Assembly (NCBI GenBank): GCA_963779425.1
Contig: CAVZYD010000006.1
Location: forward strand, 586,704-650,703
From: an uncultured Acidimicrobiaceae bacterium
GTDB lineage: Bacteria > Actinomycetota > Acidimicrobiia > Acidimicrobiales > Bog-793
Length of the DNA stretch: 64,000 bases
Direction: 5' to 3'
The notes beneath the pieces were generated by a model that saw nothing but the letters and a program-made list of their open reading frames with translations, was not told where the DNA came from and did not search any database. Position 1 is the first letter of the stretch, and every line of letters begins with the position of its first letter. Positions 498 through 30,168 of this stretch are shown here, piece after piece. Position numbers and translations under genes: made by a program.

Positions 498-1137
498 GTG
501 CCTGCCGCCGACCTCGTCGCCGTCGGGCTCGGCAACCCCGGTGTGGAGTACGAAGGGACCCGCCACAACGCCGGCGCCGAGGCCGTGCGCCTCGTGGCGC
601 AGCGCCACTCGGCCCGCTTCCGCGGGGAGAAGGGCCTCAGCGCTGAGACGGCCGTCGTGAGCATCGCCGACGCGGACGCTGGTTCTGGCGGTGCCGCAGA
701 CTTATGTGAACGAGTCCGGGCTGGCGGTGAGAGCCCTCGTGCAGCGTTACCTCGGTGCAGAGCAAGCCCCGGGATCGGGCGAGGGAGGGCGCGGTCGGGG
801 ACCGGTCGTGTTCGCGCCCGGCTCGCTCGTTATCGTCCACGACGAGCTGGACCTCGAGCCGGGCGTGGTCCGGGTCAAGCTCGGGGGAGGCACAGCCGGG
901 CACAACGGGCTGCGTTCGATCCAGTCGCACCTGCGCCATCTCGACTTCGCCCGCGTCCGCATCGGTGTCGGCAAGCCGCCGAACCCGGCTGCCGGGGCGG
1001 ACCACGTGCTGAGACGCGCCTCACGGGCTGAGCGTGACCTGATCGCCGTCGCCATCGAGGTGGCCGCCGACGCCGTCGAGTGCCTGCTCACCGACGGACC
1101 GGAAGTGGCCATGAACAGGTTCAATACGCGGGGATGA
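498..1137 (+). pseudogene. pth: peptidyl-tRNA hydrolase, split by one frameshift near 668-676 as sequenced
   Basis: Frame 3 from GTG 498 gives MPAADLVAVGLGNPGVEYEGTRHNAG, the Pth N-terminal motif. The protein continues in frame 1 as (R)TLVLAVPQTYVNESG...VIVHDELDLEPG...GGTAGHNGLRS to TGA 1135-1137. Removing one base near 669-673 restores ...SIAD-RTLVLAVPQTY. Confidence 0.85.
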
Positions 1138-4100
1138 GCCGAAGCGAGATGAGTCCGCCACCGCTGTCGGCCCTGCCGGGCCTGCTCGCCGGTGAGGCCG
1201 TCATCGCCGAGCTCCTCGGTGTCGACGACGCCGTCGTCGCTGTCCCGGACGCGGCGCGCACGGTCGTGCTCGCCGCGCTCGCCGAGCTGAGCACGGCACC
1301 CACGGTCCTCGTCGCAACGGCGACGGCCCGCGAGGCCGAGCAGCTCGCACACGACCTCGGGCCCTTCCTCGGTCCCGACTCGGTCGAGCTGCTGCCGGCA
1401 TGGGAGACGCTCCCGTTCGAGCGGGTGTCGCCCGCGACCGAGACGATGGGCCGCCGGCTTCGCACGATGTGGCGTCTACGCCACAAGGCAGCGGAGGGTT
1501 CGTCTCCCGGAGCGGAGGCGGAGGGCGCCCCGTGCGTCGTCGTCGCCCCGATCCGGGCCCTTTTGCAGCGGCTCGGCGCCGAGGGTTGAAGACACCGAAC
1601 CCGTCGTCGTCCGCCGGGGCAGCGAGCTCGACCCGTCCGCAGCTCGTGGCGCGCCTCGTGCATGCCGGCTACCGCCGCGAGTACCAGGTCGAAGCCCGCG
1701 GCGAGCTGGCGGTCCGGGGCGGCATCGTCGACGTCTTCGGCTCGACGGCCGACCACCCCGATCCGCATCGACCTGTTCGGCGACGAGGTCGAGCGCCTGA
1801 CGGCTTTCGAGGTTGCGAGCCAGCGCTCGGTCAGCGATCTCGACCAGGTCGAGCTCTTCGGCTGTCGCGAGCTCGTGCTCACCGAGGACGTGCATCGAGC
1901 GCGCCCGGGCCCTGTCCCGGTCAGCGCCCTTCGCCCAGGACAATTTCGCCAGGATCGCGGAAGGGGAGCTGTTCGACGGCATGGAGTCCTGGCTGCCGTG
2001 GCTCAGTGCCAGCGAACGCCTCTTCACCGACCTGTTGGACGAGCGCTCCCGCGTCGTGCTCGTCGAGCCCCGGCGGCTTCGCGACCGGGCGGCGGAGATC
2101 CTGGACGAGGAGGTGGCCCTGAGCGAGAGCCTGGCGACGACCTGGGGGCTCGAAGAGGTCGACGCGGCGGCTGCGATGCCGCGCCTGCACCTCGGCTTCG
2201 ACCGTCTCTTGCAGCACAGCTCGGCCAAGGTGGCCTCGCTGCTGCCGGTCGCCGAGAGCAGCCGCGCACGGTGGCCTTGCAGGCCTCTGGCTGGCCACCG
2301 GTGCTGGGCGACTCCGCCGTCCTCGCCCGCCGATTCGCCGAGCTCGCCAGCTCGGGCCACCGGGTCGTGATCTGCGCTGACGGCCGGGGCAGTGCCGAGC
2401 GCATGGCGGCGGTGCTCGACGGCGAGGGCCTGGCCTGCGATTTGCTCGTCGACGAGGCTTCCGAGACGGTCGATACCTCCATCCGCCGGCCGGGTGTCCA
2501 CATCGTCGTCGCTGCCTTGGACCGCGGCGGTCTCATCTCGAGCTCGAAGCTCGCCATCGTCGCCGAGCCGGACGTGACCGGACGGCGGCGGCCGCACCGC
2601 CAGGCGCGACCGCGACCGCGTGCCACCGAAGGCTTCTTCGACGACCTGGCGCCGGGCGACTACGTCGTCCACAACGTGCACGGCGTCGCCCGCTTCGCCG
2701 GCATGGTGACCCGCTCCATGGGCGGCGCCGAGCGCGACTACCTGCAGCTCGAGTACCGGGGCGGCGACAGGCTGTACCTGCCCTCTGAACAGATCGACGC
2801 CCTCACGCCCTACACAGGGGGCGAGTCGCCCGCCCTCAACCGCATGGGTGGCGCCGAGTGGTCACGCCAAAAGGCCCGCGTGCGGGCCGCCGTGCGCGAG
2901 GTGGCAAAGGAGCTGGTCGAGCTCTACCGGCGGCGCCACACCACCCCCGGACACGCCTTCGCCCCCGACACGCCCTGGCAGGCAGAGCTCGAGCAGGCCT
3001 TTCCCTACCCCGAGACCCCGGACCAGCTGAAGGCGGTCGAAGACGTCAAGGCGGACATGGAACGGCCCGTGCCGATGGACCGCCTCGTTTGCGGCGACGT
3101 CGGCTTCGGCAAGACCGAGGTGGCCGTGCGCGCCGTGTTCAAGGCGGTGCAGGACGGTTACCAGGCCGCCATCCTCGTCCCGACGACGCTGCTCGCCCAG
3201 CAGCACTTCCAGACGTTCTCCGAGCGCTACGCCCCCTACCCGCTGCGCGTTGAGGTGCTTTCGCGATTCCTCACGGTCGCAGAGGCGCGAAAGGTCGTCG
3301 ACGGGTTGGCGGACGGGTCGGTCGATGTCGTGATCGGCACCCACCGACTCCTCACACCCGACGTGAGGTTCAAAAAGCTGGGTCTCCTCGTCGTCGACGA
3401 GGAGCAGCGTTTCGGCGTCTCCCACAAGGAGGCCATAAAGCAGCTGACCATCGGCGTCGACGTGATCACCTTGACGGCAAGTCCTATCCCGCGCACGCTC
3501 GAGATGAGCCTTACGGGCATCCGCGACCTCTCGCTCATAACGACGCCGCCGTCGGAGCGCCAGCCGATCCTCACCTATGTCGGCGAGCACGACGAGCGCG
3601 CCGTGGCCGAGGCGCTGCGGCGCGAGCTGTTGCGGGAGGGCCAGATCTTCTACGTCCACAACCGCGTGCACGACATCGAGCGCGTCGCCGCCGAGCTGCG
3701 CAGCCTCGTGCCTGACGCCCGCGTGGCCGTCGCGCACGGCCAGATGGACGAGGGCACCCTCGAACAGGTCGTGCTGGACTTCTGGGCGGGCGCCTACGAC
3801 GTGCTCGTGTGCACGACGATCATCGAGTCCGGTATCGACATGCCCTCTGTCAACACCCTCGTGGTGGACCGGGCCGACCGTCTCGGACTAGGCCAGCTCC
3901 ACCAGCTGCGGGGCAGGGTCGGGCGTGCGGGGAGGCGTGCCTACGCCTACTTGTTGTTCCCTCCCGACCGCGTCCTGTCAGAGCAGGCCTACGAGCGCCT
4001 GCGGACCATCGGCGAGCACACCGAGCTCGGATCGGGCTTCAAGATCGCCATGCGCGACCTCGAGATCCGCGGGGCAGGCAACCTGCTCGGCAGGGACCAG

Positions 4101-4757
4101 TCCGGTCACATCGCCGCCGTCGGCTACGACCTCTATGTCCGACTCGTGGCCGAAGCGGTCTCCGAGCTCAAGGGCGAGCCGGTCCGCGTCCCGGTCGACA
4201 TCACCGTCGACCTTCCTGTCGACGCCTTCTTGCCCTCGGACTACGTGGAGCGCGAGGACTTGCGTCTCGAGGCCTACCGCAGGCTGGCGGAGGTCCGCGA
4301 GCCGAGCGCGGTCGAGGACCTTCGCGCGGAATGGCTCGATCGCTACGGCCCCCTGCCCGAAGAGGCAGAGGCGCTCGTCGCCGTCGGGCGGCTCCGGGCC
4401 GAGTGCGTCCGCACGGGTGTCACAGAGGTGACGGCCTCGGTCTCGCGCCCAGGTGCGGGAGGTCCCGGGCGCACCGGCGAGGCCGTGGCCCGAATCTCGC
4501 CTCTTCGCCTGCGGGCCTCGGCCAGGGTACGTCTCGGCCGCTTGCACCCCCGGGCCATCGTCAAGGAGGAAGTCGACCAGGTCATCGTGCCGCTTGCCGC
4601 CGGGTCCGATCTCGCCGACCGCCTCGCCGTCCTTTTGCGCGAGCTCGTCCCGCCCGAGCTCACCGCCGCCGCCCCGAGCGATCCCGACGCCGCCGCGGTC
4701 GCCGCCGCTGAGGCGGTGGCGGCTGGCTTTGTTCCCCGCGCCGCCCCTACCATCTGA
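1134..4757 (+). pseudogene. mfd: transcription-repair coupling factor Mfd, five frame changes between ~1580 and ~2265 as sequenced, then intact
   Basis: ATG 1134 overlaps the pth stop (ATGA). The homologous reading runs frame 3 to ~1582, frame 1 to ~1638 (VEDTEPVVVRRGSELDPS), then frame 2 to ~1758 (QLVARLVHAGYRREYQVEARGELAVRGGIVDVFGSTADHP). It continues in frame 3 to ~1903 (IRIDLFGDEVERL), frame 1 to ~2262 (FARIAEGELFDGMESWLPWL), and frame 3 to the TGA at 4755-4757. Later motifs are PGDYVVHNVHGVARF (CarD-like), GDVGFGKTEVA, DEEQRFG, LTASPIPRT and QLHQLRGRVGR. Confidence 0.9.
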
Positions 4758-5857: not shown

Positions 5858-9322
<3,465 letters not shown>

Positions 9323-25152: not shown

Positions 25153-25158
25153 GTCTTA

Positions 25159-25187
25159 ACTTTGGTCACAATAGCAACGACTGTCAA
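25159..25187 (-). promoter_or_regulatory. candidate promoter giving a leaderless transcript of the NlpC/P60 gene
   Basis: Read on the minus strand: TTGACA (25187-25182), a 17-nt spacer, CAAAGT (25164-25159, keeps the conserved A2 and T6), 6 nt, then ATG (25152). No Shine-Dalgarno motif lies between them. The surrounding ~60 bp is conspicuously AT-rich. Confidence 0.35.
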
Positions 25188-25285
25188 CTAAATAACAATT
25201 GAGCAGGGATTTTGATAGTGCGTGGCGGTAAGTGGGGCGACAACTACGTTGGATCGTCGCCCGAAGGCGGCCGCGCAATGGTCTT

Positions 25286-25359
25286 GGGGACGTAGCCCAA
25301 CAGGCAGAGGCAGGGCGCTTAAAACGCTCACAGTGAGGGTTCGAGCCCCTCCGTCCCCA
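25286..25359 (+). tRNA. tRNA with anticodon UAA (nominally Leu) on a class I (5-nt variable loop) body; CCA not encoded
   Basis: Hand-folded cloverleaf:
- acceptor GGGGACG / CGTCCCC (25286-92 / 25352-58), discriminator A
- D arm GCCC-AACAGGCAG-AGGC
- anticodon stem GGGCG / CGCTC with loop CTTAAAA (25318-24; anticodon TAA at 25320-22, U33 and A37 present)
- variable loop ACAGT
- T arm GAGGG-TTCGAGC-CCCTC. Confidence 0.8.
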
Positions 25360-25531
25360 CGGGACCGGCTCGCGGCCGCCTGAGCTCGAGGAGGGGTCGC
25401 GAAGCCGGCCGCCCCCGGCGGGCTCGGCTCGGCCCTCCTAAACGGGGCTGGCCTGGGCAAGTTCTTGGGCAAGCCTCAGGAGAAACACAGGAAGGCCCCT
25501 TATCCTTAGGCCGTCACTGCTGCCTAAAGGA

Positions 25532-29625: not shown

Positions 29626-30168
29626 CTACAGGCCGAGGCCTTGTGTGACCTCGACGCCTGGAATCCTCCTGAGCAGCTGACCGGGGAGGATGATCTTGGA
29701 ACGACGCACGCCGGAGCCAATGAGGATGACGGGAGTGCTGATGACCTGGGCGTCGACGAGAACAGGCCAACCATGGGGGAGACCGATTGGCGTTATCCCT
29801 CCGTACTCCATGCCCGTGAGCTCGACGGCACGGACCATTGCCAAGAAGGAGGCTTTGCGCACGTCGAGGAAGTTCTTGACGACCCTGTTGACGTCGGCCC
29901 GAGTTGTCGCGAGCACCACGCATGCCGCCAGACGCTCGGTCCCTTCGCGCTTGCCGCCCACTACGACACAGTTGGCCAGGGACCCGGGCTCTAGCCCGAA
30001 CTCCCGCTGAGTCGCCGCCGTGTCCGAGAGCGCCGGGTCGATCTCGACGACTCCAACGTCATCGAGCAGGCCATTGTCCGAGAGTGCCTTCCGGGTCGGC
30101 TCAGCCAACAGATCCGGGCGGGCAGATGCCGGGACGCTCGAAAGCGAGCCGAGGGTGAAGGTTCCCAT
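29626..30168 (-). CDS. YbaK/ProX/EbsC-family aminoacyl-tRNA trans-editing deacylase domain protein
   Basis: Intact 180-aa ORF. ...LANCVVVGGKREGTERLAACVVLATTRADVNRVVKNFLDVRKASFLAMVRAVELTGMEYGGITPIGLP...VILIGSGVRRSKI is the typical YbaK-fold core. Confidence 0.7.
   Translation of the reverse strand: MGTFTLGSLSSVPASARPDLLAEPTRKALSDNGLLDDVGVVEIDPALSDTAATQREFGLEPGSLANCVVVGGKREGTERLAACVVLATTRADVNRVVKNFLDVRKASFLAMVRAVELTGMEYGGITPIGLPHGWPVLVDAQVISTPVILIGSGVRRSKIILPGQLLRRIPGVEVTQGLGL

Follow-up and report, generated by a model that had tools for sequence, protein, structure and literature searches.

A class I tRNA-Leu(UAA) with a five-nucleotide variable loop in an Acidimicrobiia-type actinobacterium, very probably a normal member of a conserved tRNA-Leu family

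Reviews restate the rule that bacterial tRNA-Leu belongs to class II. The closest described exception comes from Streptomyces: almost all bacterial tRNA-Leu are type II, and the Streptomyces LeuRS has been presented as the only prokaryotic one that charges both types (Fan et al. 2019, PMC6614811). In S. coelicolor, tRNA-Leu(CAA) is type I, with the variable loop A44 C45 A46 G47 C48, and the single LeuRS of this organism charges it with a kcat/Km of 6.25 s-1 uM-1, compared with 14.2 s-1 uM-1 for the class II tRNA, that is, about half as efficiently as the class II tRNA-Leu(UAA) bldA (PMC6614811). Charging of the type I molecule requires U8-A14, an identity element shared by the tRNA-Leu types, together with the length of the 5-nt loop, 5 nt being the minimum; on the enzyme side, the L732/G733 region of the leucine-specific domain of ScoLeuRS has been tied to type I charging (Fan et al. 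2019, PMC6614811). The type I tRNA-Leu of S. coelicolor is reportedly no substrate for the E. coli LeuRS. Human mt-LeuRS accepts both tRNA-Leu types of S. coelicolor, and human mitochondrial tRNA-Leu(UUR) is not charged by the S. coelicolor enzyme (PMC6614811). Our literature search for earlier descriptions of class I tRNA-Leu in Actinobacteria found only this study.

We analysed a 64-kb stretch of chromosomal DNA from an uncultured Acidimicrobiaceae bacterium, referred to as the window, in which ARAGORN found a single tRNA, at 25286-25360 (+), and called it tRNA-Leu with anticodon taa. The Rfam tRNA model RF00005 matched 25286-25359 (+) along its full length (1-71), with 55.4 bits against a gathering score of 29 and E = 3.2e-9. 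The tRNA at 25286-25359 (+) is a real gene, far beyond chance. Its features, with the evidence for each, are as follows.

25153..25285, plus strand: lower-GC intergenic region, presumed promoter region (composition, ~0.61 GC vs ~0.67-0.72 in the flanks)
25286..25359, plus strand: class I (type I) tRNA-Leu(UAA) gene, 74 nt from G1 to A73 (ARAGORN, Rfam RF00005, 4 identical assemblies, >100 species)
25295..25311, plus strand: D arm GCCC-AACAGGCAG-AGGC (sequence; conserved in 102 genome-scan relatives)
25318..25324, plus strand: anticodon loop CTTAAAA with U33, A37 and A38, anticodon TAA at 25320-25322 (sequence)
25330..25334, plus strand: variable loop ACAGT, 5 nt (A44-U48), in place of a long variable arm (sequence)

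Read from the sequence, the acceptor stem pairs GGGGACG with CGTCCCC over 7 bp and leads into U8 and A9. The D arm consists of a 3-bp stem, a C13.A22 mismatch and a 9-nt loop containing A14, A15 and G18G19. It is followed by A26 and by the anticodon stem GGGCG/CGCTC. U48 of the variable loop is able to pair with A15, and the T arm reads GAGGG-TTCGAGC-CCCTC, with T54 and A58 present. A73 is followed by genomic CGG, so CCA is not encoded. A first-pass annotation of this DNA had described the same cloverleaf (7-bp acceptor, U33, A37, GG in the D loop, T loop and discriminator A) correctly in every listed feature, and the sequence and the ARAGORN call of tRNA-Leu(taa) likewise confirmed the TAA anticodon and the 5-nt variable loop that it had reported. 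A class II tRNA has a variable stem-loop of at least 10 nt, and the variable region here is 5 nt long. The molecule combines the traits of a class I tRNA-Leu: the 5-nt variable loop, U8-A14, the elbow formed by G18G19 and the T loop, and a Leu anticodon. The minimum free energy fold of the single sequence was not the cloverleaf, folding being uninformative for a GC-rich tRNA. A consensus scan gave no promoter-like (sigma-70) and no terminator-like sites; judging by its base composition, the region at 25153..25285 may serve as the promoter.

Among described tRNAs, SCOt09, the tRNA-Leu(CAA) of S. coelicolor, resembles the window tRNA in its 5-nt loop (ACAGC vs ACAGU) and in U8-A14, G18G19, U54-A58 and A73. 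Both are actinobacterial, each decodes a UUR codon, and in S. coelicolor one LeuRS serves both types. The homology is read from the published variable loop and the class rather than from a nucleotide alignment. The anticodon of SCOt09 is CAA rather than UAA, the UAA isoacceptor of Streptomyces being the class II bldA. The class II tRNA-Leu(UAA) genes leuZ and bldA have in common with the window tRNA the anticodon, A73, A26, U48, the 3-bp D stem and a mismatch with a purine at position 22; the D arm of E. coli leuZ is GTGG-AATCGGTAG-ACAC, with G13.A22 where the window tRNA has C13.A22. The D loop AAYNGGYAG is common to class II tRNA-Leu and the window family, and the leuZ loop AATCGGTAG is identical to that of some family members. 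The variable arm, in contrast, has 15 nt in leuZ and 17 nt in bldA as opposed to 5 nt in the window tRNA, and outside the arm the identity between leuZ and the window tRNA is not above the background of unrelated tRNAs. In addition, bldA has a developmental regulatory role, and nothing indicates one for the window tRNA. Human mitochondrial tRNA-Leu(UUR) likewise belongs to class I, has a UAA anticodon and receives leucine from a bacterial-type LeuRS, but it is organellar, AT-rich and structurally fragile, and nothing indicates common descent for the short loops of the two molecules.

Since probable indel errors occur elsewhere in the window, it was worthwhile to check the assembly at the tRNA itself. 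The pth gene is spread across two frames (the N-terminal LGNPG..TRHN part in the ORF at 498-1031 and the C-terminal half in the ORF at 691-1137), mfd (1080-4757) is broken between 1589 and 1662, and the enolase gene eno (7400-8875) lies only partly within one ORF; these are probably assembly indel errors and not pseudogenes of essential genes. Such errors lend some weight to the first-pass suggestion that an otherwise ordinary tRNA carries a sequencing or assembly error at 25320. We looked up independent assemblies of the locus through the neighbouring YbaK-like protein, and all four of them (JGI metagenome 3300038619, GCA_052148615.1, GCA_052915985.1 and GCA_964623325.1) contain the identical 74-nt tRNA with TAA. 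The same anticodon is present in relatives that differ by one or two substitutions (L179, L036, L168, L240) and in family members of other species. With T34 in four independently assembled public records and in more than 100 further species, a base error at 25320 is ruled out for practical purposes, and we give it virtually no chance.

We then searched one genome per species with the pattern CTTAAAA-N5-ACAGY-N3-GGTTCRA-NN-CC, which gave at least 120 matches, and metagenomes with a pattern that leaves the anticodon free, GCCCAA-N1-2-GGCAGAGGC-N6-CT-NNN-A-N6-ACAGY-N3-GGTTC. The genome scan yielded at least 102 further full-length tRNA(UAA) genes of 72-75 nt, all with 7 of 7 acceptor pairs, and ARAGORN called most of the genome-scan matches tRNA-Leu(taa), at 73-77 nt. 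About 90 of the 102 full-length relatives listed belong to Actinomycetota. The matches listed come from Mycobacterium, Mycolicibacterium, Nocardia, Rhodococcus, Gordonia, Dietzia, Corynebacterium, Bifidobacterium, Microbacteriaceae, Arthrobacter, Nocardioides, Pseudonocardia, Lentzea, Saccharothrix, Amycolatopsis, Frankiaceae, Nakamurella, Rubrobacter, Coriobacteriia, Acidimicrobiaceae and many Actinomycetota MAGs. The closest of them, from an Acidimicrobiaceae MAG (L036), differs from the window tRNA at 2 of 74 positions, and one metagenome sequence (L179) at a single position. The first-pass annotation had treated a short-arm tRNA(UAA) as an anomaly; the recurrence of the same class with the same anticodon in related genomes removes that interpretation.

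A dozen matches bear other labels: Planctomycetota, Acidobacteriota, Chthonomonadaceae, Desulfobacterales, Mogibacterium, and MAGs of Alphaproteobacteria and Flavobacteriaceae. MAGs of Planctomycetota (L018, L068, L087), Acidobacteriota (L034, L077, L123) and Chthonomonadaceae (L093) each have a single class I tRNA-Leu(UAA) outside any array. For these MAGs, either the family is wider than Actinomycetota or the contigs are mis-binned. The only match listed under the name Streptomyces among the class I UAA genes is from Streptomyces sp. ID05-26A (L084, 2155-2231), whose tRNA is identical to Lentzea sequences (L065, L091, L098, L120). The name of this strain may be wrong; that would agree with an absence of class I UAA tRNA from true Streptomyces.

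In the 5' half of the molecule, which lies outside the genome-scan pattern, U8A9, A14A15 and C13.A22 occur in 102 of 102 full-length relatives and G18G19 in 101 of 102; A73 is likewise present in 101 of 102. The D stem covaries among these relatives (GCCC/AGGC, TCCC/AGGA, GTCC/AGAC and others). Over the 148 distinct relatives from both scans, 99.4% of the pairs are canonical and 17 of the 20 stem pairs show compensatory changes. Conservation is partly circular in the variable loop and the T stem, which both search patterns specified, and, for the metagenome set, in the D arm, which that pattern specified as well. The loop CTTAAAA occurs in 133 of the 148 distinct members and is fixed by the pattern in the genome scan. 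These alignments mark the D arm as a hallmark of the class I tRNA-Leu(UAA) family, and by analogy with the U8-A14 identity element of Fan et al. 2019 it is likely to form the LeuRS recognition core. The acceptor helix, for its part, is fully compensated across the family, with the D arm and variable loop staying fixed: GGGGACG/CGTCCCC in Acidimicrobiia-like members, GGGGGCG/CGCCCCT in Rubrobacter-like members and GCCCCCR in most other Actinomycetota.

CTTAAAA is one substitution away from the tRNA-Phe loop CTGAAAA, and the window tRNA is class I with A73. On these grounds it could be a tRNA-Phe, or another class I body, in which G34 has become T and which would miscode or recode UUA and UUG, as the first-pass annotation had proposed. 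The anticodon-free metagenome scan speaks against this: all 120 matches listed have Leu anticodons (TAA 112, CAA 5, CAG 2, TAG 1), and none of the 120 has GAA or any other non-Leu anticodon. A tRNA-Phe would have GAA itself or share its body with relatives that do; here TAA is present in all assemblies, and the same body with TAA is kept in more than 100 species. Furthermore, the D arm (3-bp stem, C13.A22, A14A15..G18G19..AG), which we take to differ from that of tRNA-Phe, is laid out like that of the class II tRNA-Leu leuZ. No extra aminoacyl-tRNA synthetase gene lies near the tRNA, and orthologues have 63 L against 1 F at the TTG codons of the window. A Phe-derived body is ruled out by the scan, in which only Leu anticodons occur among the matches listed, and miscoding from such a body is extremely improbable. 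Mistranslating tRNAs of the tRNA-ProX type combine a mismatch of anticodon and identity with an adjacent paralogous aaRS gene; the window has no aaRS-like gene, and body and anticodon are both Leu.

We dropped global similarity as an argument for a Leu body. After removal of the V arm, E. coli tRNA-Leu(UAA) matches the window tRNA at 47 of 74 positions, a value that does not stand apart from those for E. coli tRNA-Cys (42) and tRNA-Gly (46). As global identity is no better than with tRNA-Cys or tRNA-Gly, the argument for a Leu body rests on architecture and on the association with Leu anticodons. A further first-pass candidate, a non-canonical tRNA-Leu, holds insofar as the molecule has the short variable loop of class I; it is anomalous relative to the textbook, however, and not within its lineage.

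The 59 predicted genes of the window contain 12 TTA codons among 18,735 (0.64 per 1000) and 238 TTG codons (12.7 per 1000). TTA occurs in the Lgt, BioY, PanE-like, peptide-permease and aminotransferase genes, and some TTA codons near predicted N-termini may fall upstream of the true start. At the TTG codons, orthologues of relatives have Leu in 63 of 72 positions, mostly encoded by CTG, TTG or CTC, which matches the CTG/CTC control (Leu in 85% of orthologue positions), and Phe appears in 1 of 78 TTR comparisons. At TTA codon 296 of the PanE-like gene, 3 PDB homologues (ketopantoate reductases) have Leu, TTA codon 130 of the OppC-like permease corresponds to an aliphatic V/I position in solved structures, and the single TTA covered by relatives' orthologues sits in a non-conserved linker. 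Nothing in these codon-orthologue comparisons for the window suggested recoding of TTR codons. The aligned positions show UUG, and one conserved UUA site, to mean Leu in the genome of the window.

Recognition by bacterial LeuRS is independent of the anticodon and need not involve the long arm. By analogy with the S. coelicolor experiments, a single LeuRS would charge the window tRNA with leucine, recognizing its tertiary core (U8-A14, the A15/U48 region, the position of G18G19 and the length of the variable loop) together with the acceptor end. The transcript would be processed at A73 and receive CCA enzymatically, and on the ribosome the tRNA would read the rare UUA and, by U34 wobble, UUG as leucine. 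Expression of the gene and modification of U34 and A37 are presumed in this scheme. The comparison with bldA made in the first-pass annotation does not carry over: bldA is class II, whereas the window tRNA is class I, and a switch of the bldA type would have UUA confined to auxiliary or regulatory genes, where here it occurs in ordinary ones.

The gene content of the window includes L25, Pth, Mfd, MazG, enolase, G6PD, Ppx, a GT2 glycosyltransferase, Lgt, BioY, peptide ABC transporters, Dtd, an F420-dependent reductase and PPK2, and the window is ordinary chromosome. No synthetase gene, leuS included, was found in its 64 kb. The tRNA lies in the same gene order, GNAT - NlpC/P60 - tRNA - FtsX/ABC, in L036, L179, L168 and L240, with 77-96% amino-acid identity, and the tRNA is a single-copy (one in the window), syntenic, phylum-wide gene. 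A YbaK-like deacylase gene lies at 29626-30168, 4 kb from the tRNA; pth belongs to a conserved L25-pth-mfd-mazG-eno cluster ~24 kb upstream, and dtd lies ~24 kb downstream. The stretches around ~240 other family loci (up to 8 kb in genomes and ~15 kb in metagenomes) contained no YbaK homologue, those around the tRNA of close relatives ending before the expected YbaK position. We rejected a functional link of the tRNA with YbaK, pth and dtd, the housekeeping clusters being ~24 kb off and YbaK unseen in the stretches around other loci. The connection to tRNA-hygiene enzymes raised in the first-pass annotation appears coincidental, pth, dtd and the YbaK-like gene being unlinked housekeeping genes.

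The deacylase 4 kb away, the cell-envelope neighbours (NlpC/P60, FtsX/ABC, Lgt and the GT2 glycosyltransferase) and the rarity of UUA (12 of 18,735 codons) are what could point to a tRNA kept mainly for a non-ribosomal or regulatory purpose, be it a bldA-like switch, aminoacyl transfer to the cell wall or to natural products, or action as a tRNA-like decoy. However, the neighbourhood contains no enzyme of the Fem, MprF or cyclodipeptide-synthase type or any other that uses aminoacyl-tRNA, and the neighbours of the tRNA vary between lineages, with YbaK unseen at other loci, where the stretches are maybe too short to reach it. UUA is present in ordinary genes (Lgt, BioY, PanE-like, peptide permeases), UUG is common (12.7 per 1000) and also readable by a UAA anticodon, and the strict features of an elongator tRNA (T loop, G18G19, 7-bp acceptor) are conserved. 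The context of a syntenic, phylum-wide gene with strict tRNA covariation gives no hint of the non-ribosomal use that the first-pass annotation had listed, and we consider it very improbable as the main purpose of the gene, although the tRNA may have a regulatory side role.

Short tRNA-Leu genes are also widespread in phages, whose public records annotate full-length 74-nt homologues as tRNA-Leu. Those of Mycobacterium phage Kykar, Rhodococcus phage Trina and the Felix-O1-like Escherichia phage mistaenkt are 74-76 nt long and have the D-arm motif TAGCCCAAYYGGNAGAGGC, like the window tRNA, and a 5-nt variable loop (NCAGT), again as in the window tRNA. They are phage-borne, often within tRNA arrays, and have any Leu anticodon, whereas the window gene is chromosomal and syntenic. 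In mistaenkt (L248, MN850587.1), short tRNA-Leu genes with UAG and CAA lie at 1501-1576 and 2080-2156. Short tRNA-Leu genes that combine this D-arm motif with a variable loop of 5 nt occur in Felix-O1-like phages infecting E. coli, Salmonella, Citrobacter and Erwinia, and also in cyanophages and in Pseudomonas, Vibrio, Bacillus, Lactobacillus and Rhizobium phages. Their presence in Felix-O1-like coliphages is odd, given the report that E. coli LeuRS leaves the type I tRNA-Leu of S. coelicolor uncharged (PMC6614811).

Several scan matches lie in dense tRNA arrays (L200 5928-10316, L197 218-2755, L199, L169, L115 5291-7997, L208 7703-7994, L048 3218-3475, L242 and L107 408-747). These arrays hold up to 40 tRNAs, with a tmRNA as well in L200, and their tRNA-Leu are short (74-79 nt) for several or all Leu anticodons; their tRNA-Ser and tRNA-Tyr retain long arms. 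A phage or mobile-element origin of these arrays is probable. At twelve other loci (L014, L016, L033, L041, L044, L045, L046, L051, L079, L083, L095, L106), only the 3' half of the tRNA is present: it begins at the anticodon loop, next to unrelated sequence, and runs to A73. These loci look like att-type duplications, so in Mycobacteriales and Pseudonocardiales mobile elements appear to use the class I tRNA-Leu(UAA) gene frequently as an integration site.

The abundance of homologous class I tRNA-Leu in phages and large arrays, and the use of the same gene as an integration target in other genomes, as seen in the 3'-half duplicates, raise the possibility that the window gene was acquired horizontally from a phage or mobile element and is not a core gene. 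Against this, it is the only tRNA in the window, and its flanks are housekeeping genes with synteny conserved in related Acidimicrobiia. Its acceptor stem GGGGACG is common to other Acidimicrobiia-like sequences, which indicates vertical descent. The window contains no duplicated 3' half, and on this ground we rejected an integrated element at the tRNA; nor did the 64 kb contain an integrase gene. A search of a plasmid collection gave no match. We regard horizontal acquisition as very improbable.

Taken together, the window gene is very probably a normal chromosomal tRNA-Leu(UAA) of an Acidimicrobiia-type actinobacterium, a member of a conserved class I tRNA-Leu family that would be charged by LeuRS. 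The gene is real and free of sequence error at this site, it covaries as a tRNA does, and its body occurs only with Leu anticodons among the matches listed. Leucylation by the organism's own LeuRS is what homology and the alignment of UUG and UUA with Leu would predict, the assay being known for S. coelicolor only. A short-arm tRNA-Leu is an already known kind, and the window gene is one of very many orthologues that the tools call tRNA-Leu; the locus itself has nothing that points to recoding, miscoding or new tRNA function.

In Fan et al. 2019 the type I form is a rarity of Streptomyces, whereas in our scans the UAA version is phylum-wide. As judged from these matches, class I tRNA-Leu with the 5-nt loop ACAGU in place of the long arm is found throughout Actinomycetota; the scans indicate that the UAA isoacceptor is class I across the phylum, and the breadth of class I tRNA-Leu appears to be under-described. 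The inverse arrangement in Streptomyces, with CAA on the class I tRNA and UAA on the class II bldA, suggests an anticodon swap there. We see an even chance that the short-arm tRNA-Leu(UAA) is the ancestral and near-universal UUR decoder of Actinomycetota, occurring also in some Planctomycetota, Acidobacteriota and Armatimonadota and in many phages, coliphages included, and that Streptomyces is derived. If so, LeuRS recognition independent of the V arm would be widespread in bacteria and no peculiarity of Streptomyces, and the derived Streptomyces state would consist of a class I body with CAA, the reading of UUA having moved to the class II bldA, later a developmental switch.

The textbook class II rule for bacterial tRNA-Leu fails for a whole phylum and many phages, and throughout Actinomycetota false alarms will come from annotation pipelines or anomaly screens that flag a class I tRNA with a Leu anticodon. 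For studies of LeuRS, the family is a source of hundreds of natural sequences that share one invariant core (U8, A14-A15, C13.A22, G18G19, ACAGU and A73), which could help to define how LeuRS recognizes a tRNA-Leu that lacks the long arm.
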